A DNA stretch of 64,000 nucleotides from Promethearchaeota archaeon (GTDB taxonomy: Archaea; Asgardarchaeota; Lokiarchaeia; Sigyniarchaeales; SOKP01): positions 233,166 to 297,165 of the forward strand of contig JAHPZJ010000013.1 in assembly GCA_019058245.1 (NCBI GenBank). Direction: 5' to 3'. Below, one piece after another: positions 17,435 through 29,801 of the stretch. Under the pieces are notes generated by a model. That model worked only from the letters and a program-made list of their open reading frames with translations. It was not told the origin of the DNA and ran no database searches. Position numbers and translations under genes: made by a program. Position 1 is the stretch's first letter. Each line of letters opens with the position of its first letter.

Positions 17435-19078
17435 GTGAGAATTATAAGTTTAAATGAATTGACCCCAAAGCAAGGTTATTGCTTATCGATATTATCTGCG
17501 ATATTATTATTATTAAGTTTTCCACCTTTTGAATTTGGAATGTTCTTGGGATGGATTGTTTATGTACCTATTTTATTGGCAGTGTATTTTGAGACGGAAG
17601 TGAAGCGAGTAAAGAGGATGGTTATGATTGCTAGTTTAGGTGCACTACCAGTATCCTTGGGTTTCAGTTGGTGGGTTTTAGATATGCTAAGAATTGTTTT
17701 TCCCCAGGCTCCAATATGGTTAAAAATCCCGGTATTTATTTTAGGTATCATAGTATGCATTGTTCTAACCAGAATCTTTGTGGAAATTATTACTAGATTA
17801 TGGCAACCAAAATCGCGTCCATCAGCAATAAAGATCACAAGATTCTTGCCATCAAATTTAGCAATCATAATAATACCAATTGCATTTACTTCTATAGAAT
17901 TTATAGCATTAAACATTCCTGGATTAATGAGAATTACAGGAATTTATGGGTTCTTTTCTATGGCGAAGACTCAATGGAAAAATATCCCAATATTGCAAAT
18001 AGCGTCATTTACGGGAATATATGGGATAACCTTTCTTGTGATAATAGTAAATTGTTCAATTACTTTATTTATTATTCATTATAAAAAAGTTAAGAAAATT
18101 TATAAACCCTCGATAATAATATTTTGCTTATTTCCATTCTTTCATTTGTACGGTTTCATTATAACTCCAAGTCGAAGTGATGGAAGTGTAACTATTGCTG
18201 TTTTACAAATGCCTCCTCAAGGAGAGAATACTTATAATAATTATTTTGATTTAAGTAATGAATCATTAAAATATAATCCGGATATAATAATTCTACCAGG
18301 ACTCATGCTTGATGGATTAATAATTGATGAGGGATTTATTAATTTCAGTAGTTCCAATAATGTTTATATAACTGGATTTGTTGAAAATTTAGGCTATTAT
18401 GGAATTGTCAGCCCAGATGGGGATCTAAAGGTTGATAACTTTGGATATCATCTCGCTACAATTCCTAATGATCTAATTTCCTTAAATATTTTAAGATTAT
18501 TTTTTCCTAAAGTAAATAGTTTAGAATTTGATATTGGTTCTTTTGCTGTTACTGATTGCTTTGAGTCAGGACTTCCTTTAGCAGCTAGGGACAGAGTAAG
18601 AAAAGGCGCAGAAATTTTATTAGTCCCAACAGGAAGTCCAAATGTTCAAGCCTTTTCATGGCTATTAAAAATAAATGCTATTTTTCGAGCTGTTGAAAAT
18701 CATATTTACACAGTTGAGGTAGTAGGAGATTATGACTCATCTATTATAATAGACCCTTATGGTAGAGTCATAAATGATATAGCTCCCGAAAAAAACATCA
18801 TCGTTGGAACAATATCATTTATTAATCAAAGAACCTTTTATTCGACATTTGGGGATATTTTTGGATGGATTATAGTCATTTGTTTCATAATCCTAGTAAT
18901 CTATAATTTTAAAATTAAAAAAAAAAGCACCTTTAAGTACTGTATAGAGTGTGAAAGTAAAATCGAAAAAACTGCTGAAACTTGTAATATTTGTGGTTCA
19001 AATCAAGAAAGACCTCCTCTTTGGAAGCGAATTATACTTCATGAATATTATGAGCATAAAAGGAAAAAATCAAAATAA
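17435..19078 (+). CDS. Apolipoprotein N-acyltransferase (Lnt)/nitrilase-like membrane protein with C-terminal Zn ribbon
   Basis: LSFPP, ILQIASFTGIYGITF, DCFES, FRAVEN, IIDPYGR, TFYSTFGD; C-terminal CIEC...CNICG. Confidence 0.8.
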   Translation: MRIISLNELTPKQGYCLSILSAILLLLSFPPFEFGMFLGWIVYVPILLAVYFETEVKRVKRMVMIASLGALPVSLGFSWWVLDMLRIVFPQAPIWLKIPVFILGIIVCIVLTRIFVEIITRLWQPKSRPSAIKITRFLPSNLAIIIIPIAFTSIEFIALNIPGLMRITGIYGFFSMAKTQWKNIPILQIASFTGIYGITFLVIIVNCSITLFIIHYKKVKKIYKPSIIIFCLFPFFHLYGFIITPSRSDGSVTIAVLQMPPQGENTYNNYFDLSNESLKYNPDIIILPGLMLDGLIIDEGFINFSSSNNVYITGFVENLGYYGIVSPDGDLKVDNFGYHLATIPNDLISLNILRLFFPKVNSLEFDIGSFAVTDCFESGLPLAARDRVRKGAEILLVPTGSPNVQAFSWLLKINAIFRAVENHIYTVEVVGDYDSSIIIDPYGRVINDIAPEKNIIVGTISFINQRTFYSTFGDIFGWIIVICFIILVIYNFKIKKKSTFKYCIECESKIEKTAETCNICGSNQERPPLWKRIILHEYYEHKRKKSK

Positions 19079-19891: not shown

Positions 19892-20863
19892 TTGAAGAAA
19901 AAGTTAAGCTCGGATTCAGAAATTTTAAAATGTTCTCATCAAAATGTCAAAAAAGATAGTGGATTTTACGTTTGCCAAGATTGTGGTTTAATTATGGAAA
20001 ATAAATTGGCATTTGAGGATTCCGCACCATCTAGTGGATTCTTTACGGACTCACAAAGAGAATATGAACGAAGTATCCGAGTTGGTGATTCCAAAGCACT
20101 CCAAGATCCAATAATAAAAGAAAAATATAGTCGAATTAAAACACTCGAAAAATGGTTTAGAGATTACGAATCTGATTTTACTGAGCAGAAGAAATCGATC
20201 GAGTTACTAAAAAGCCATAGTATTGGATTAAATATCGATCATACAAGATATAAAGGAATTAAAGATAGATATTTAAAATACAACAAATATCATCGCCATA
20301 ATTATCAAAATATGGTAATAATTTTCCTTGCGATTGTTTGGATGGATATAAAAGATACTACAACTATTAGAATCGAAGAATTTATTAAAGTATCAAGAGA
20401 ATTAGGACACAAGATAAATAAAAAAATGCTAAATAATGCAATGTTAAAAGTGAAAAGAACTGAAAATATGCTTAAAAGTAAAAAATCTAATCTAGATTTA
20501 GAGAAAGAAATCAAAAATAGAATAAAAATTGTATTTCAGAAAGATTTAAACAATATTCCATACCAAAAAATACAGGAACATATTACAGATAAACATGAGT
20601 TTGAAAAAATCAAAATGGAAATGTTATTATTAGTTGATAAAATACTTAATAAAATTAACTATAAACAGATTCAAAATCTTAATTATAAAGCATTTACAGC
20701 TGGTTTGATTTATTATATCGGACAAACACTTGATAATAAAAAAATATTTACTCAAAGTATAATTGAGAAAACAACGAAATTTTCAAGTACGACTATTAGA
20801 AAGAAATATCATGTGTTAAAAGATCTAATGGGAGATCCTCAAACGCTTAAAGCCCGAATTTAA
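19892..20863 (+). CDS. Divergent TFB-like (Zn ribbon + cyclin-fold) protein
   Basis: CSH...VCQDCG Zn ribbon; C-terminal AGLIYYIG...TQSIIEKTTKFSSTTIRKKY resembles the TFB HTH. Confidence 0.7.
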   Translation: MKKKLSSDSEILKCSHQNVKKDSGFYVCQDCGLIMENKLAFEDSAPSSGFFTDSQREYERSIRVGDSKALQDPIIKEKYSRIKTLEKWFRDYESDFTEQKKSIELLKSHSIGLNIDHTRYKGIKDRYLKYNKYHRHNYQNMVIIFLAIVWMDIKDTTTIRIEEFIKVSRELGHKINKKMLNNAMLKVKRTENMLKSKKSNLDLEKEIKNRIKIVFQKDLNNIPYQKIQEHITDKHEFEKIKMEMLLLVDKILNKINYKQIQNLNYKAFTAGLIYYIGQTLDNKKIFTQSIIEKTTKFSSTTIRKKYHVLKDLMGDPQTLKARI

Positions 20864-20950: not shown

Positions 20951-23830
20951 ATGTCATCCTTAGAAAAAAAATATGTTCCATATTATTATAATCAAACTAT
21001 TGAAGAGTTAATTAAAACTTTCAATACGGATATTAATAATGGAGTAAATTCTTCTGAATTAAGTGAGAGACATCTAAAATATGGATATAATGAAATATCG
21101 AGAATTAAAAAATCCATATGGAAAATTTATTTAGCACCGATTTTTAATTTTTTAATTGTAATTTTATTGGTTACGGGTATCATAATAGTTATTTTAGGCG
21201 CCATTGGAGACACTGTAATAACTTTTAGTGTTGTTGTAATCAATTCCGCTACTGCTATAATTCAGCAATTTAGAGCTCAAAAAGCTTTAGAATCTTTAAG
21301 AGAAATTTCGGGCTTAAAAGCAACAGTTTTACGGGATGCTAATCAATATGAAATTGATACAAGAGATTTAATTCCGGGGGATATAGTTATATTAGAACAA
21401 GGAGATAAAATACCTGCTGATGGGAGAATAATAAAAGAAATGAATTTAACTGTCGATGAAGCTCCATTAACAGGCGAAAGTGAACCTGTAGAAAAAAATA
21501 GTAAATCTATAGAGGAAATGGAACTTACAATTCAAAAACAATCAAATATGGTATTTATGGGTACCTATGTTCAAACTGGTCGAGCAAAAGAATTAGTAAC
21601 TGGAATTGGGATGAACACCGAAATTGGAAAAATTTCTCAAACCTTAAATGAAATGGGTAGTATTGAAGATATTCCTTTAACAAGAAAATTAAACAGATTA
21701 GGGTATATTTTAGGGACGATTGTTATTATTAATTTAATTGTTTTAATAATTTATAAACTTTCATGGCTACAGATTGAAGGAAACTTCATTCAAAGTCGAA
21801 TTATTGATGCTTTAGTAGATTCTATATTACGAGCGATGAATATTGTGCCTATTAATTTACCATTATTATCTACTTTAGTCCTAATCACTGGAGTTCTTAC
21901 AATGGCGCAACAAGGAGTTATAATCAAAAATCTATCAGCTATAGAGTCTCTTGGACGTGTATCTGTTATATGTTCAGATAAAACTGGAACAATAACAAAA
22001 AATGAGATGACTGTTGAAAAATTTTGGATAAACGAAAAAGAATATGAAGTTACTGGTTCTGGATATGATGCAGAAGGAGAAATTTTAAAAAATGGTAATC
22101 AAATTGAATTAGAAAAGAACGCTACATTTCAAATGTTTATTGATTCTATGGTTGTGAATAATAATGCAAGTCTAGTATTCGAAGATGTAAAAGTAAGATT
22201 AAGAGATTTAAAAGAAAAGGCAATAAGAAAAGCATTAGGATCACCTACAGAAGCCGCGTTATTAGTATTAGCTGAAAAAGTTGGTTATTTTACATATGAT
22301 CTCAAAAATAATTATGAAGTAACCGCTGAATTTTCTTTTAGTTCTGAATCCAAAAAGATGACGTCAATTTGTAAACTGATTTCAGAAGATTCAAATCTTT
22401 ATGCTTTTTCAAAAGGAGCACCTGAAAGAATTTTACAAATTTGCTCTCAAATTGAAATAAACGGTATTCTTAAATCTTTTGAAGACAATTATAAAATCCA
22501 AATTTCTAATAATATAGATGATCAAGCTAAAAAAGGATTTAGAACATTAGCAATAGCATATAAAAAATTAAATTCAAATATTAATGAAAAAAGAGAAGAA
22601 ATTGAGAAAGATTTAATCTTTTTAGGATTTGTCTCAATTATGGATCCCCCTCGAGAAGGAGTTAGAGATTCTATTGAAATTTGCAGAAAAGGTGGCATAA
22701 AAGTAATAATGATTACTGGTGATCATCCTGCTACAGCTCAAACAATAGCCTCCCAAATGGGCATCTTTTCTGAAAAGAATTTAGTAGCAACCGGAGAACA
22801 AATCAAAAATATGGATCTATTAGAGTTCAATAAAACCACGGTTTTCGCACGTGTAGAACCAACTGATAAAGAGGTTATAGTTGAAAATTACCAAAATCAA
22901 AATTATATTTGCGCTATGACTGGAGATGGTATAAATGACGCACCTGCATTGAAGCTTGCTAATGCGGGAATCTCTATGGGAATAACAGGAACGGATCTTG
23001 CTAAAGAAGCTTCGGATATGGTAATCACGGATGATAATTTCGTATCAATTAAACAAGGAGTTAAAATTGGAAGAGGAATTTTTGCAAAAATAAGAACCAT
23101 TATTTTCTTCTTTATTTGTACAAATATAATGGAAGGTATCATCTTTTTTGCTTTTGAAATGCTCCAACCATTTACTGGATTTGAATTATTTTCCTCAAAT
23201 TGGCAACATATCTATATTTTTGGAATTTTACATTCCCTTCCCTCCTTAGCATTAGTTTTAGATATTCATCCAAAAGATATTATGAATGAACCTCCTAGAA
23301 ATGAAGAAGAATTATTAAATAAGAATTTATGGGTATTTTTACTAATTCAAGCTTTCCTTGGAGGTTTAGGATTAGTTTTAGCATTACTATTACCATTAAG
23401 TGGTTTAATTCCCTTGAATTCTTGGAATCTAAATGACTCCTTAAGTTATATTCCCACTGGAGCATCTGAAATATATATGCTACATATGAAAGCAAGAACT
23501 ATGTTTATAACAACAATTTATATCTTTGAATCATTCTTTATTTGGACGTTTAGACGTCCAAATAAATCATTATATAAGAGTATAAAGGAAGAATTAAGTT
23601 ATACGTTATTACTTATATGTCTTTTTACATTAGGCTTACACATTCTTTTTATATGCTTTTCTTATTTAGCTAATCATTACGTGAATAATGTATTTGGGTT
23701 AGGCTTGCAGATTAACTTCATTTTCCTCAGTGGAACAGATTGGATAATATGTTTTTTACTTACATTACCTGGTATATTAGGAATTGAACTATTTAAATAC
23801 TTAGCTAGAGAGAAGCAAATTTATTTTTAA
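20951..23830 (+). CDS. P-type ATPase, P2-like, atypical transport site
   Basis: TGES, DKTGT, KGAPE, DPPR, TGD, GDGINDAP; M4 PINLP instead of PEGLP. Confidence 0.93.
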   Translation: MSSLEKKYVPYYYNQTIEELIKTFNTDINNGVNSSELSERHLKYGYNEISRIKKSIWKIYLAPIFNFLIVILLVTGIIIVILGAIGDTVITFSVVVINSATAIIQQFRAQKALESLREISGLKATVLRDANQYEIDTRDLIPGDIVILEQGDKIPADGRIIKEMNLTVDEAPLTGESEPVEKNSKSIEEMELTIQKQSNMVFMGTYVQTGRAKELVTGIGMNTEIGKISQTLNEMGSIEDIPLTRKLNRLGYILGTIVIINLIVLIIYKLSWLQIEGNFIQSRIIDALVDSILRAMNIVPINLPLLSTLVLITGVLTMAQQGVIIKNLSAIESLGRVSVICSDKTGTITKNEMTVEKFWINEKEYEVTGSGYDAEGEILKNGNQIELEKNATFQMFIDSMVVNNNASLVFEDVKVRLRDLKEKAIRKALGSPTEAALLVLAEKVGYFTYDLKNNYEVTAEFSFSSESKKMTSICKLISEDSNLYAFSKGAPERILQICSQIEINGILKSFEDNYKIQISNNIDDQAKKGFRTLAIAYKKLNSNINEKREEIEKDLIFLGFVSIMDPPREGVRDSIEICRKGGIKVIMITGDHPATAQTIASQMGIFSEKNLVATGEQIKNMDLLEFNKTTVFARVEPTDKEVIVENYQNQNYICAMTGDGINDAPALKLANAGISMGITGTDLAKEASDMVITDDNFVSIKQGVKIGRGIFAKIRTIIFFFICTNIMEGIIFFAFEMLQPFTGFELFSSNWQHIYIFGILHSLPSLALVLDIHPKDIMNEPPRNEEELLNKNLWVFLLIQAFLGGLGLVLALLLPLSGLIPLNSWNLNDSLSYIPTGASEIYMLHMKARTMFITTIYIFESFFIWTFRRPNKSLYKSIKEELSYTLLLICLFTLGLHILFICFSYLANHYVNNVFGLGLQINFIFLSGTDWIICFLLTLPGILGIELFKYLAREKQIYF

Positions 23831-23970
23831 TGAGAAATTATCTTATTTTACCTTTTAATAATCTTATGATATCTTTAAATTAAATGGTTATTATAGGTTA
23901 TTTATTAAATTAAATAGATAGAAGATTTCAATAATCATTAATTATTCTCAATAATTCTGGAAGATTTATT

Positions 23971-26853
23971 ATGGAAATTACAGATGAAAATTACTACAAT
24001 ATTGAATTAGATCAAATTTATCAAAAATTTCAAACCAATTCTGAAACAGGATTAACTCAACAAGAAGCTAATAAACGATTAGAAAAGTATGGATATAATG
24101 AGATTCCTAAAGTCTCTAAAGGATTTATTAAAATCTATTTAGCACCTTTATTTAACTGGCTTATAGTCATTTATTTAATTGGCGCACTGATCTTATTTTT
24201 AGCATGGGTGTTTGGAGGAGGAGGAAATGTTGCTTTTATTATAATTACTTTAGGAATTGTATTATTGAATTGCATAGTTGCTATAATTCAACAATATAGA
24301 GCCACAAAAAAACTTAAAGCTCTACGCGAATTAACAGCACCCACCTCAACAATTATTAGAGACGGACAAAAAAGAGAAGTTCCTACCAAAGAAATTGTAG
24401 TTGGTGATTTATTAGTTTTAGAGCAAGGTGATAAAATACCTGCTGACGCTAGAATTATTCAATCTTATAACATGGTTGTTAATGAGGCTTCATTAACTGG
24501 AGAATCTGAGCCTGTAAGAAAAGTTGAAGTAGGAAAAGCACTCCAGAAAAAAGATATTTCTATAGGAGAACGTAACAATATGGTTTTTTATGGAACTTAT
24601 ATTTCAACTGGGAATGGTAAATCAATTGTGGTTAAAACTGGTGGAGATACAGAAATCGGAAAAATATCTCATGGATTAGAAGAAGCTGGAACAAGTGAGA
24701 TACCAATTAGAGAGAAGATGAACAATTTTGGAAAATGGTTAGGATTAATTATATTTATTTTTTGGTTTATCACTTTAATAATACTCTGGTTAGCAACTGG
24801 AGAAGCAAATATTGTAAAGAGTATGAATTCTGCGCTCGATCTTATGCCATTAAACATACCACTGCTTACAACTATCGTTTTAATAACAGGAGTCTTAGCT
24901 ATGGCACATTATGGAGTAATTATTAGAAATCTTGCATCTGTAGATAGTTTAGGACGTGTAAGCGTAGTCTGTTCAGATAAAACAGGAACTTTAACTAAAA
25001 ATCAAATGTCAATTCAACATGTCTGGACAAATGGTTCAATTTTTAGAATTACTGGTAGTGGTTATACTCCTGATGGAGAAATCATTTTAATGAATGACCC
25101 AAAAAATCCAATTTATGTAAAACACATTGATGAATTTCCTTATTTAAAGTTATTGTTAACAGCAGGATTTTTAAATAACAATTCTGCATTAATTAAAAAT
25201 GAATTAGAGATTTCTGGGAAAACTATCCCTAATTGGAATGTGGTTGGTTCTCCTACAGAAGGAGCATTAATGGTATTATATCAAAAAGGAATGGGAGATT
25301 ATCTTCTTGATGATTATGAATCTATAACTGAATATCCTTTTGATTCTTCATTAAAAAGAATGACAAAGCTTTATAAACGAGATCACGCTTATTATTCTTT
25401 TACAAAAGGTGCGAGTGAAATACTAATTCCTCAATGTACAAAAATCTTATACAATGATGCTGAAATTGGTTTCAGTGAAGAAATTAAAAGTAAAGTATTG
25501 GAAATTGTAAATCTTTATGCAAATCAAGGTTTTCGTATATTGAGTTTGTGTTATAAAGTGATGGATATAATTCCACCTGAAGGAGAGAAAGGAAGAGAAA
25601 TAAGCGAATCTGATATGATATATATTGGTTTTGTTACTATCCAAGATCCACCGCGAGAAGGTGTTAAGGAATCTGTAATAGAATGTCATGAAGCTGGAGT
25701 TGATGTTATTATGATCACAGGGGATTCTCCTGCTACAGCAAGAGCGATTGCCACACAAATTGGGATTGTATCTAGTGAAAATGATACTGTTATTGAAGGG
25801 ATAAAAATAAAAGAAATCGAGTCATATAAACAATTCAATCCAATTAAAGTGTTTGCGAGAGTCTCTCCAGAACATAAAGAAGATATTGTAGAAAAATATC
25901 AGGAACAAAATAAAGTAGTAGCAATGACAGGTGATGGTGTTAATGATGCTTTAGCTTTAAATATGGCAGATGTAGGAATCGCAATGGGCATCACGGGTAC
26001 AGATGTAGCTAAAGAAGCTTCTGATATGGTTATTTCAGATGATTCGTTTAACTCAATCGTAACTGGTATCCATCATGGCAGAGGGATTTTTGCCAGAATT
26101 CGAGCTTTGGTTTTCTTTTACATAGTTATTAATATTTTTGAAGGGATAGTTCAATTTATTTTAGCGGTAATTTTTTCCCTACCCTTTTGGGTTGATCCAG
26201 CATCACCATTTTATTATCAATGGATTTTTCTCACGATAACTCTTCATACATTTCCAGGTTTGATTCTTACCTTTGATACAACTTCAGATGATGTTATGAA
26301 AGAAAAACCACGTGATTCAGAAGAAATACTTTCAAAAAATATTTTTATTCTGTTATTTATATTTGGAATGTTGATGGCTATAAGCATGGTAATAGTATAT
26401 TACATTACATTCAGCGGAATTTATGAGGTTGTTAATGCTAACATAGATTTTGGTTCATTTAATGATGCATATCTTTATGGAGGATCGGATCTTGTAGCAG
26501 ATCTTCCGCTATTGAGACAAGCAAAAACCTTAACAATGCTTATGTTAACCTTATTTTTCTGTGAATCCTTTTTAGTATTCCAAATTAGGCGTCCTAATAA
26601 ATCATTAATAAAAAGCTTAATTGAAGATCGAAATAAATTTATGTTTATTCTAATTGGCTTTTTATTTTTTGTATTTATCGCCTTATTATACATCCCTGGT
26701 GTTCAAGTTTTTTTAGCTGATTCCGGAATTAATTTTATGTTTATGTATCTAACGGGATTAGACTGGTTGGTATGTTTCCTAATCTCGCTAATTTGCATAG
26801 CCTCATTTGAAATTGTGAAATTTATCGCTCGTAGAAAGAATATCACTTTTTAA
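23971..26853 (+). CDS. P-type ATPase, P2-like, atypical transport site (paralog)
   Basis: TGES, DKTGT, KGASE, DPPR, TGD, GDGVNDA; M4 PLNIP. Confidence 0.93.
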   Translation: MEITDENYYNIELDQIYQKFQTNSETGLTQQEANKRLEKYGYNEIPKVSKGFIKIYLAPLFNWLIVIYLIGALILFLAWVFGGGGNVAFIIITLGIVLLNCIVAIIQQYRATKKLKALRELTAPTSTIIRDGQKREVPTKEIVVGDLLVLEQGDKIPADARIIQSYNMVVNEASLTGESEPVRKVEVGKALQKKDISIGERNNMVFYGTYISTGNGKSIVVKTGGDTEIGKISHGLEEAGTSEIPIREKMNNFGKWLGLIIFIFWFITLIILWLATGEANIVKSMNSALDLMPLNIPLLTTIVLITGVLAMAHYGVIIRNLASVDSLGRVSVVCSDKTGTLTKNQMSIQHVWTNGSIFRITGSGYTPDGEIILMNDPKNPIYVKHIDEFPYLKLLLTAGFLNNNSALIKNELEISGKTIPNWNVVGSPTEGALMVLYQKGMGDYLLDDYESITEYPFDSSLKRMTKLYKRDHAYYSFTKGASEILIPQCTKILYNDAEIGFSEEIKSKVLEIVNLYANQGFRILSLCYKVMDIIPPEGEKGREISESDMIYIGFVTIQDPPREGVKESVIECHEAGVDVIMITGDSPATARAIATQIGIVSSENDTVIEGIKIKEIESYKQFNPIKVFARVSPEHKEDIVEKYQEQNKVVAMTGDGVNDALALNMADVGIAMGITGTDVAKEASDMVISDDSFNSIVTGIHHGRGIFARIRALVFFYIVINIFEGIVQFILAVIFSLPFWVDPASPFYYQWIFLTITLHTFPGLILTFDTTSDDVMKEKPRDSEEILSKNIFILLFIFGMLMAISMVIVYYITFSGIYEVVNANIDFGSFNDAYLYGGSDLVADLPLLRQAKTLTMLMLTLFFCESFLVFQIRRPNKSLIKSLIEDRNKFMFILIGFLFFVFIALLYIPGVQVFLADSGINFMFMYLTGLDWLVCFLISLICIASFEIVKFIARRKNITF

Positions 26854-26933: not shown

Positions 26934-27482
26934 ATGCTAAGAGGTCCCAGAATTAAATTAGTCCCTATTAAAAGGGAATATATTGAGTCATTTCTCAAAT
27001 GGGTTAACGACCCAGAAATTACTCAATATCTAATAATGTATCGTCCAATAACTAGAATGGCTGAGGAAGATTGGATTGAAAGCCTTAGAGAAGATAATGA
27101 AAGTATACATTTTTCTATAGTAATATTCCATGAAAATAAACTTGAAAAATTGATTGGAAATTGTGGATTAAACAATATTAATTGGAAAGACAGAATTGCT
27201 GAAGCGGGAATTGTTATTGGAGAAAAAGAGTATCATAATAAAGGATATGGAACAGAAGCATTGAATATTTTGTTAGAATATGGGTTTAACACGGTAAATT
27301 TAAACCGTATTGAATTGCTTGTTTATGAGTATAATACTAGAGCTATAAAATCTTATAAAAAAGTTGGATTTGTTGAAGAAGGACGAAAAAGGCAATTTAT
27401 CTGGAATGATGGAAAATATTATGATGCTCTTATAATGAGTATATTAGCTAAAGAATGGGAAGAAAAGAATAAAAAAGATTAA
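26934..27482 (+). CDS. RimJ/RimL-family GNAT acetyltransferase
   Basis: LIGNCGL, YHNKGYGTEA, YNTRAIKSYKKVGFVEEG. Confidence 0.9.
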   Translation: MLRGPRIKLVPIKREYIESFLKWVNDPEITQYLIMYRPITRMAEEDWIESLREDNESIHFSIVIFHENKLEKLIGNCGLNNINWKDRIAEAGIVIGEKEYHNKGYGTEALNILLEYGFNTVNLNRIELLVYEYNTRAIKSYKKVGFVEEGRKRQFIWNDGKYYDALIMSILAKEWEEKNKKD

Positions 27483-28522
27483 TCTAATTCATTAAAGTAA
27501 GGTATTATCTTATCTCGAACTATTTCATAAACTTTATTAGGATCAGGTCCTCTATTCATAAAACTCATATTTGTAGCACCAGCTTGCTGATATTTTTCAA
27601 TACTAGAAATAACATCATCAGTAGTACCTATACAGTTTGTATCTTGTAATATTGTTTCGGGTAACTTATCTATATTATTCGCATAATCTAATAAATTTCC
27701 ACCAGTCATATCAACATCATGAACATTAGTAATTTCTGGTAGATTTAAGTTAGGATATGCTTCATTTGTAATATATGCATTTAATACATAAGAAGACTTA
27801 AAGAATTCACATCTTTTTAATGCATTATTAGGGTCATCATCGTCAATTGCTATAAAACAATCATAAACAAAATCGATATCAGATGGATTTCTATTACTCG
27901 CTTTCGCAATATCAGAGATTTCTTTTACATATTTTTTATAGAGCCATGGCGGCTGATAAAGTGGATACCAACCATCTGCTAATTCTCCAGTTATTTTGCG
28001 CGTTTTTGGACCATTACCCGCAACATAAATAGGGATTCTGTCTTGAATAGGTTTAATTTGAATATAAGCATTTTTAATTTCTCCCCAGAATTCACTATTT
28101 CTATTAACCCTTTTTTTTGTCCAGAAATCTCTCATTAAATTAATATATTCTCGTAATTTTGTAACTGATCTCTTTCTTTCTATACCATACATATCAATAT
28201 TCATTGCTTCCCCAGCTCCAAGTGCTATCATACCTCTTCCATTAGATATTTGATCTAACGTAGCTACTTTATGCGCCATTAATGCGGGATGAAAACGGTG
28301 ACAATCAGAAACTCCCGTACATAACATTATTTTTTTTGTTATCATCGCTAAAGATGATAAAAAACAATAAGCATCAAAACAAGTTCCTGGACCTGGAGGC
28401 AACATTGTTGTATGATCTGCATAAAAAACTCCAAAAAAGCCACATTCTTCTGCTTTTTTTGTACCATTGAACATATATTCAAGACGAGGTGTTGGTACAG
28501 GTATGTGAAAACTAAATCTCAT
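27479..28522 (-). CDS. Luciferase-like monooxygenase class (F420/flavin-dependent) oxidoreductase
   Basis: YADH, HPALMAHKVATLDQISNGR, IYVAGNGP, GELADGW. Confidence 0.88.
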   Translation of the reverse strand: MRFSFHIPVPTPRLEYMFNGTKKAEECGFFGVFYADHTTMLPPGPGTCFDAYCFLSSLAMITKKIMLCTGVSDCHRFHPALMAHKVATLDQISNGRGMIALGAGEAMNIDMYGIERKRSVTKLREYINLMRDFWTKKRVNRNSEFWGEIKNAYIQIKPIQDRIPIYVAGNGPKTRKITGELADGWYPLYQPPWLYKKYVKEISDIAKASNRNPSDIDFVYDCFIAIDDDDPNNALKRCEFFKSSYVLNAYITNEAYPNLNLPEITNVHDVDMTGGNLLDYANNIDKLPETILQDTNCIGTTDDVISSIEKYQQAGATNMSFMNRGPDPNKVYEIVRDKIIPYFNELD

Positions 28523-28685: not shown

Positions 28686-29801
28686 ATGGACATTAAAATT
28701 GGGACGGAGGGAACATTTATTCCTCCCTTTGATCGAGGTATTGAAAGTGTAAAGAGAATCGAAGAAATTGGATATGATTCAATTTGGTTTGCGGATCATT
28801 TAATGGGATGGATCCCAGAATCGATTTGGACTCCAGACCTTATAGAATGGTCAAAACATCAAAAAAGTCCCCATGATTTTTTTGATGTTTATCCTGCAAT
28901 GTCAGTGGCAGCATGGAGCACTAAAAAAGTTCAATTAGGTACAAGTGTTACAGAAACTTTTAGGAGACATCCAGCTGTACTAGCTCAGACGTTTCTAACC
29001 TTAGATCATATCTCAAAAGGAAGAGCAATTCTCGGTATTGGTACTGGTGAAGGAGAAAATATTATTCCTTATGGTATTAAATGGGAAAAACCTGTTAGTA
29101 GATTAGAAGAGGCAATAAAAATAATAAAGCTTCTTTGGGAAAATGATGAAAAAGTTAATTATGATGGAGATTTTTGGAAATTAAAAAATGCCGTCCTTTC
29201 GGTAAAACCTTATGAAGAAGGAAAATATCCACCTATATGGATAGCTGCTCATGGTCCTAAAATGTGTGAATTAACAGGAAGACTTGGAGATGGTTGGTTA
29301 CCATCCAACTTTGATGTTAAAACCTTTAAAAATAGACTCAATCTTATTCATTCTTCAGCAAAAAAAGCTGGACGTAATCCAGAAGAAATTACACCAGGGT
29401 TATGGACCACTTTAATTATTGATGAAGATCATGGTGTCTGTGATGATTTATTAGAATCCCCATATGTAAAAAATTATACTTTAATTCAATCGAATGCTAC
29501 ATTTGAAGAATTTGGTATGTCGCACCCATTCGGTAAAGATTTCTATGGTCTTCTCGATTACATCCCAACTAATTATGATCGAGAAACTATGCTTGAAGCT
29601 ATGAGTAAGATTCCAAAAGAACTATTAAATAAACACTTTTTACATGGCACTCCAGATGAGATTATATCAAAAATTGAAAAATATGCTAAAGCTGGATTAA
29701 AACATATAGTTCTTTATAATATAACTTACAACTGCGATCTTTCTAAAGTAAAAAGCTCTTTTGGATGCTTAAAAAAAGTTATAAATTATTTTAAAAAATA
29801 A
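28686..29801 (+). CDS. Luciferase-like monooxygenase class (F420/flavin-dependent) oxidoreductase
   Basis: WFADH, RHPAVLAQTFLTLDHISKGR, IWIAAHGP, GRLGDGW. Confidence 0.88.
   Translation: MDIKIGTEGTFIPPFDRGIESVKRIEEIGYDSIWFADHLMGWIPESIWTPDLIEWSKHQKSPHDFFDVYPAMSVAAWSTKKVQLGTSVTETFRRHPAVLAQTFLTLDHISKGRAILGIGTGEGENIIPYGIKWEKPVSRLEEAIKIIKLLWENDEKVNYDGDFWKLKNAVLSVKPYEEGKYPPIWIAAHGPKMCELTGRLGDGWLPSNFDVKTFKNRLNLIHSSAKKAGRNPEEITPGLWTTLIIDEDHGVCDDLLESPYVKNYTLIQSNATFEEFGMSHPFGKDFYGLLDYIPTNYDRETMLEAMSKIPKELLNKHFLHGTPDEIISKIEKYAKAGLKHIVLYNITYNCDLSKVKSSFGCLKKVINYFKK

Follow-up and report, generated by a model that had tools for sequence, protein, structure and literature searches.

What defines a P-type ATPase subfamily is its transmembrane binding site. 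In the P2A pump SERCA, residues E309, N796 and D800 are Ca2+ ligands. E309, in the M4 motif PEGLP, is also the gating Glu, and D800 bridges both Ca2+ sites and is indispensable for both. P1B pumps have eight transmembrane helices with CPC or SPC in the fourth (M4), and the P1B-4 Co2+/Fe2+/Zn2+ ATPases carry SPC in M4 and HEGxT in M6. In P3 H+-ATPases the E309 position is as a rule occupied by Ile or Val, and the defining marks of P4 pumps, which work with CDC50, are an A-domain DGET, an M4 PISL and an M5 Lys (K873 of ATP8A2) (PMC4937031). A 64,000-nucleotide stretch of a Promethearchaeota archaeon genome (GenBank assembly GCA_019058245.1, contig JAHPZJ010000013.1, forward-strand positions 233,166 to 297,165; the window) contains two adjacent P-type ATPase genes, gene 1 (P0001) and gene 2 (P0002). 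Judged from sequence comparison, the family to which they belong is very probably a monophyletic, Asgard-restricted offshoot of the P2A (Ca2+-pump-class) ATPases, and its transmembrane ion site appears to have been rebuilt.

As read from their sequences, the two genes encode intact P-type ATPases. Both reading frames are open, full length and co-directional, and the products are 41% identical over their whole length. Each has the full P2-type Pfam architecture (Cation_ATPase_N, E1-E2, Cation_ATPase, HAD, Cation_ATPase_C) and ten predicted transmembrane helices, as in the P2A pumps LMCA1 (9evc/6zhf), SPCA1/PMR1 (7yam/8iwt) and SERCA (1iwo). The catalytic set is complete in both genes and is that of P2A pumps: TGES, DKTGT(I/L)T, KGAxE, DPPR, MITGD and TGDGxNDAxAL, the last containing GDGxND. 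The P-type superfamily model TIGR01494 scores the pair at 287 and 300 bits (cut-off 62), and its DKTGT, TGE(S) and GDGxND motifs are all present. The catalytic motifs, including TGES, are likewise intact in 121 of 121 close homologues. An earlier note on this DNA had described intact P2-type motifs, substitutions in M4, M6 and M2, and a retained M5 N..E and M8 Glu; its residues and coordinates proved right when compared by script, HMMER and MAFFT. The motif coordinates below were verified by script on the window sequence.

20951-23830, + strand: gene 1 (P0001), P-type ATPase of the PxNxP/His clade, 959 aa (open reading frame with translation, Pfam)
21257-21274, + strand: gene 1 M2 IIQQFR, with QQ where P2A pumps have QE
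21470-21481, + strand: gene 1 A-domain TGES, the dephosphorylation loop of P2/P3 type
21848-21862, + strand: gene 1 M4 PINLP, aligned to SERCA P308-E309-G310-L311-P312 (E309 to Ile, G310 to Asn)
21977-21991, + strand: gene 1 phosphorylation site DKTGT
22922-22939, + strand: gene 1 GDGIND
23123-23134, + strand: gene 1 M5 NIME, with N725 and E728 equal to SERCA N768 and E771, kept
23219-23221, + strand: gene 1 F757 at the N796 position, just upstream of GILHSLP
23222-23242, + strand: gene 1 M6 GILHSLP, with H761 at the SERCA D800 position
23525-23536, + strand: gene 1 M8 FESF, with E860 equal to SERCA E908, kept
23831-23970, no strand: AT-rich intergenic spacer, 140 bp, with runs of T behind gene 1 and TATA-like A/T boxes ahead of gene 2
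23971-26853, + strand: gene 2 (P0002), paralogue of gene 1 from a different subclade, 960 aa (open reading frame with translation, Pfam)
24283-24300, + strand: gene 2 M2 IIQQYR
24496-24507, + strand: gene 2 TGES
24847-24861, + strand: gene 2 M4 PLNIP
24976-24990, + strand: gene 2 DKTGT
25930-25947, + strand: gene 2 GDGVND
26131-26142, + strand: gene 2 M5 NIFE
26236-26256, + strand: gene 2 M6 ITLHTFP, with His at the D800 position
26560-26571, + strand: gene 2 M8 CESF

The membrane site of these pumps differs from that of P2A pumps in a consistent way. Residues were mapped by HMMER alignment to SERCA2 and by MAFFT alignment with 98 canonical P2A representatives, and both gave the same registers. 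In the pair, N768, E771 and E908 of SERCA2 are kept; N796 is replaced by Phe or Leu, T799 by Leu and D800 by His, and the QE of M2 becomes QQ. The same pattern runs through 211 clade sequences. The E309 position is hydrophobic in all 211 (186 Ile, 8 Val, 8 Phe, 6 Leu, 3 Trp) and never Glu, whereas all 98 canonical representatives have Glu there. The G310 position, Gly in canonical pumps, is Asn in 208 of the 211; the D800 position, canonically Asp, is His in 210; and the N796 position, canonically Asn, is Phe in 140 and Tyr in 55 (195 together). In M2, the E109 position is Gln in 200 clade sequences and Glu in 97 of the 98 canonical ones. By contrast, the M5 residues of the canonical site are shared, with Asn at the N768 position in 203 of 211 and Glu at the E771 position in every sequence. 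The M8 E908 position is Glu in 209 clade sequences, compared with a mixture of Gln and Glu in canonical P2A pumps. The 120 closest clusters (66-89% identical), which carry Loki-, Thor-, Hermod-, Hod- and Odinarchaeota names, all retain P-I-N-L-P and H-[ST]-[LF]-P. Helices M7-M10 are conserved within the clade and divergent from P2A, and for most canonical representatives the alignment stops at about residue 810. The signature is near-invariant in 211 homologues, far beyond what chance would give. To judge from this alignment, it reflects neither chance nor decay, and the substitutions are under selection. The earlier note had reached the same view from the two paralogues, and the conservation that it expected in orthologues held across the 211 sequences and 16 Asgard families.

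In terms of the SERCA sites, the clade has lost all side-chain ligands of site II, where bulky hydrophobic residues now take up the space. At site I three of the five side chains remain, namely the Asn and Glu of M5 and the Glu of M8. Two residues are added to the pocket, the M6 His at the unwound turn of M6 and the M4 Asn at the unwound turn of M4. In other words, a whole clade has exchanged the two residues on which Ca2+ binding depends most, and has kept or added other polar ligands under strict conservation. An AlphaFold2 model of P0001 that used an alignment of 87 sequences (mean predicted local distance difference test score 84.9, predicted template modelling score 0.78), has helix breaks in M4 at P300-I301 and in M6 at H761-S762, where P2 pumps unwind for their ion sites. 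Its 50 best Foldseek neighbours include SERCA, SPCA1, LMCA1, Na,K-ATPase and H,K-ATPase; all 50 are P2 or P3 pumps, with no P4 or P5 structure among them. The highest VIA-align Z values were obtained for LMCA1 (35.1), SPCA1 (34.1), PfATP4 (33.6), ACA8 (33.0) and Pma1 (32.7), followed by PMCA, SERCA and Na,K-ATPase at 32-30. P2A pumps thus give the best structural matches (Z 35-31), as they give the best sequence matches (E 1e-127 to 1e-106). Since the Z values lie close together, the fold ranking of the model is supportive of P2/P3 kinship rather than decisive.

Phylogenetic trees place the clade in the same neighbourhood. The trees were built with IQ-TREE (LG+C20 with posterior mean site frequencies, quick search) on two different taxon samples with the four signature regions removed. 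They omitted eukaryotic P2B-D, P4 and P5 references, for which hidden Markov model (HMM) scores and the fold ranking served as proxies. In both samples the signature-bearing sequences formed one clade, with a Shimodaira-Hasegawa-like approximate likelihood-ratio support of 100 and a stem of 0.39-0.41 substitutions per site. The clade lies within the P2 radiation and branches inside P2A, the order among P2A lineages being unresolved and the node that excludes P2C-like pumps having a support of only 82-84. A support of 100 sets it apart from the P3A-like pumps of the same genome, and it lies far from the CPC-type P1B pumps as well. Canonical Asgard P2A pumps are spread over other P2A lineages, with no special sister relationship to the clade. 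Since P0001 and P0002 belong to separate subclades, the duplication behind them is old.

Family models give a matching picture. All NCBIfam Ca2+-ATPase equivalogs score the pair below their cut-offs, with values such as 476 against 703, 467 against 798 and 411 against 507. For the P2A model TIGR01116 (cut-off 703) the two proteins score 476 and 437 bits, and for the P2A model TIGR01522 (cut-off 798) 467 and 471 bits. The P3A model TIGR01647 gives 346 and 347 bits (cut-off 615.5), and the P4 model TIGR01652 gives 139 and 104 bits (cut-off 431), compared with about 470 for the P2A models. The marks of P5 ATPases are absent as well: M4 reads VPINLP without the double Pro of PP(E/A/V)LP, and the TIGR01657 scores of 240 and 238 bits fall below the cut-off of 618.

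How widespread is the clade? A clade HMM run at E<=1e-295 over Asgard genomes at least 85% complete detected it in 216 of 269 (about 80%), with matches in 54 of 67 genera and 16 of 28 families. Among the high-quality genomes 69 of 90 had a match and 21 had none, and the sampled members of 12 families yielded no clade pump. A looser tally at E<=1e-150 (283 of 301 genomes) is inflated by canonical Asgard P2A pumps, which score as high as 908 bits with the same HMM. Two copies are typical in the window's family and order, and one elsewhere. In a search of 1.84 billion representatives of 50%-identity clusters, about 35-40 signature clusters (at least 32 in the clade) precede the point at which ordinary PEGLP/NLVTDGLP pumps begin. 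A degenerate clade-specific DNA pattern matched at least 120 stretches in 185,579 species genomes; titles among the matches listed are Promethearchaeota, Thor-, Hermod-, Hod-, Heimdall- and Odinarchaeota, Harpocratesius and Atabeyarchaeum.

Outside the Asgard archaea, clade members were found under only four labels of metagenome-assembled genomes (MAGs): Aerophobetes and Bathyarchaeia, both from the DNA-pattern scan, and Korarchaeota and Nanopelagicaceae. The 'Aerophobetes' contig (NJBP01000013.1) has a GC content of 30% and a pump 65% identical to P0002, and is therefore mis-binned (Loki-like). The Bathyarchaeia-labelled member is a 2.5-kb fragment whose pump is 61% identical to the clade representative P0132. 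The Korarchaeota- and Nanopelagicaceae-labelled members, one representative each, could reflect mis-binning or transfer.

Canonical pumps with QE, PE[GAS]LP, N..E and N..TD also occur in most Asgard genomes. Canonical and clade pumps were found together in the genomes G075, G027, G046, G103, G135 and G259, and canonical pumps are present in the window's genus as well; none with PEGLP was found in the window's own assembly, which is 76% complete. Their coexistence argues for a different job for the clade pumps. Together with the intact catalytic motifs and the conserved substitutions, it supports the earlier proposal of an active pump family that is probably not a canonical Ca2+ pump. An odd M6 initially picked by regular expression in a same-genus PEGL[IV] group was rejected, as alignment shows the canonical N..TD. 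These same-genus PEGL[IV] pumps are sometimes arranged in tandem.

What do the clade pumps transport? The favoured reading is an active single-site cation exporter with a rebuilt pocket, possibly for a transition metal; taken as a whole it is tentative, with a likelihood somewhat short of even. The part of it that does not depend on the ligand can be held with high confidence. One cation would bind from the cytoplasm at a site formed by two Glu, His and two Asn, its binding would trigger phosphorylation of the Asp of DKTGT, and the ion would be released outside in the E2P state. The pump would then be a single-site cation exporter, neither a canonical Ca2+ pump nor a lipid flippase. A divalent transition metal is favoured because two carboxylates with an imidazole make a fitting site for a single ion of this kind, and because His binds Ca2+ poorly. 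A metal that takes mixed nitrogen and oxygen ligands (Mn2+, Fe2+, Zn2+, Co2+ or Ni2+) is a possible ligand class, though on balance a doubtful one. The P1B-4 ATPases, with a His and Glu pair in their membrane site, offer a possible precedent for a P-type pump that binds a transition metal through imidazole and carboxylate; the likeness is an analogy only, with no homology of the sites.

Several points weigh against this reading. The site geometry rests on alignment to SERCA, and the model contains no ion. No metal regulator or chaperone lies nearby in the loci examined, and the context varies between Asgard families. Transition-metal export is normally the work of P1B pumps, two of which the genome already has. 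The wide spread of the family might instead point to a pump for a housekeeping ion (H+, Na+, K+ or Mg2+). Finally, the loss of three acidic residues, at the E109, E309 and D800 positions, could be equally compatible with a monovalent ion or a proton.

The last two points lead to the main rival, a pump for protons or monovalent cations (Na+, K+, NH4+), in which the M6 His with the M5 and M8 Glu would form a protonatable or low-charge site and the hydrophobic residue at the E309 position would act as in P3A H+-ATPases. Net loss of acidic residues and near-ubiquity across many Asgard families both fit such a role. The clade also shares with P3A pumps (AHA2, Pma1 and the genome's own) a hydrophobic E309 position in P-x-x-(L/M)-P, as the P3 rule would have it, along with TGES and few acidic residues in the membrane, and Pma1 is among the top structural neighbours. 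The genome's two P3A-like pumps, of about 805 aa, read IPVALP or IPAALP in M4 and LLND in M6. Other features speak against the rival. The clade pumps exceed the P3A ones by about 150 residues and have termini of P2 type at both ends, have His in place of the proton-acceptor Asp of P3A pumps in M6 and the P2A-like N..E in M5 where the genome's own have AET(V/I)R, form a clade separated from the latter in the trees with a support of 100 and miss the TIGR01647 cut-off; moreover, two P3A-like pumps are already present in the genome. A proton or monovalent-cation pump is thus unlikely, at perhaps one chance in five. An ordinary Ca2+ or Mg2+ exporter, which would hold its ion at what remains of site I (N768, E771, E908) with help from His and Asn, is less probable again. 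Its strength is that Ca2+ pumps head both the HMM and the PDB matches, that three of five site-I side chains survive and that JGI and NCBI label relatives as Ca2+-transporting or cation-translocating ATPases. An Asgard transportome study also lists a putative Ca2+-ATPase, TC 3.A.3.2.21, in five of five Asgard proteomes (PMC7997004). These labels have to be set against a His in 210 of 211 sequences at the very residue that bridges both SERCA Ca2+ sites, bulky hydrophobic residues at the E309 and N796 positions, sub-cut-off scores for every Ca2+-ATPase equivalog and the canonical Ca2+-type pumps in the same genomes.

A lipid flippase, or a pump for a bulky or organic substrate, would use the M4 Ile as a hydrophobic gate and keep the canonical site merely as structure. 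The idea was raised in the earlier note, which had suggested a flippase or P2-to-P4 intermediate, and it draws on a partial likeness of the M4 core P-I-N-L to the P-I-S-L of P4 pumps such as ATP8A1/2 and Drs2 (P-I-x-L, with Ile at the E309 position), and on a site II filled with hydrophobic and aromatic residues. The Ile is not diagnostic of flippases because P3 H+-ATPases also have Ile or Val there. Moreover, the clade has TGES rather than DGET, Asn rather than Lys in M5, and Asn for Ser and a second Pro in M4; its P4 model score is very low, it lies inside P2A, its closest structural neighbours are P2 and P3 pumps exclusively, and its two buried Glu and His are invariant, as a cation site would need. 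It also lacks a conserved partner gene, and CDC50 (PF03381) was not found in the genome by a search that had no positive control in an assembly 76% complete. The suggestion does not stand up well to these data, and a flippase is improbable. The anion pump that the earlier note had also listed is unlikely, because two buried Glu are kept. Least probable of all is a non-transporting ATPase (a sensor or regulator) or a decaying duplicate. Loss of the usual ion ligands speaks for this reading, but both open reading frames are intact with every catalytic motif, the replacement residues are near-invariant across the 16 Asgard families, and M7-M10 are conserved within the clade.

No published description of this site or clade was found in searches on Asgard or Lokiarchaeota P-type ATPases, archaeal PEGLP, Asgard flippases, functionally uncharacterized P-type ATPases (FUPA) and the motifs PINLP, PINIP and PLNIP. 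The clade is thus apparently an undescribed P2A-derived family with a new site chemistry. Earlier site chemistries of this kind, for lipids in P4, helices in P5A and polyamines in P5B, each opened new biology. It is conceivable, although the odds are against it, that the clade carries a cargo new to P2-type pumps (a transition metal via the His/Glu site, or a non-ionic substrate) and so represents a new functional subtype, 'P2E'. If so, 'P2E' would have arisen in the archaeal lineage leading to eukaryotes, the clade occurring in Heimdall- and Hodarchaeota-labelled genomes, and a new P2 substrate would provide an accessible prokaryotic model of how P-type specificity changes. A more immediate consequence concerns annotation. 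The label 'Ca2+ pump' is probably wrong for the clade, and hundreds of Asgard genes tagged 'Ca2+-transporting ATPase' are probably mislabelled. Inferences about Asgard Ca2+ signalling that rest on such labels (e.g. PMC7997004) call for caution, since the canonical PEGLP pumps are encoded by other genes.

The window belongs to contig C13 of a 3.09-Mb MAG assembly and has a GC content of 28%. Besides the tandem pair, the genome has four P-type ATPases, two of them P3A-like and two of the CPC-type P1B kind, on contigs C28, C24 and C15, which makes six in all. Genes 1 and 2, with the AT-rich spacer between them, may be transcribed separately. A sigma-70 promoter and terminator scan, a method not suited to archaea, gave nothing above shuffled sequence. 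The tandem arrangement was present in six of six loci from the window's family and in none of 15 loci from four other families, in which the gene stands alone. Clustering and annotation of the genes flanking 20 loci revealed no partner conserved across Asgard families. Neighbours differ between families and are unrelated housekeeping genes; they include subtilase, a UFM1-ligase-like protein, PanB, MFS, YhhN, PanE, a TFB-like protein and GNAT. For example, in another Asgard family a single clade ATPase is followed by a protein of about 660 aa (L037:11874-13859, + strand) with a weak match to E3 UFM1-ligase (PF09743), and subtilase and PanB flank the ATPase; counterparts lie at the other loci of that family (f9). 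The UFM1-ligase-like gene may encode a eukaryote-signature protein.

On the same strand as gene 1 and 87 bp upstream of it lies a gene for a 323-aa protein (19892-20863, + strand) of TFB-like size with an N-terminal Zn-ribbon (weak TFIIB/A2L ribbon matches). It is syntenic with the ATPase pair in six of six loci from the window's family and not in other families. An apolipoprotein N-acyltransferase-like protein (LNT_N and CN_hydrolase) is encoded at 17435-19078 (+ strand), also conserved near the pair within the family; the Lnt family is usually linked to bacterial lipoprotein maturation, and here it occurs in an archaeon. Downstream of the pair lies a GNAT acetyltransferase gene (26934-27482), followed by two divergently oriented paralogous genes for luciferase-like (F420- or flavin-dependent) monooxygenases at 27479-28522 (- strand) and 28686-29801 (+ strand).

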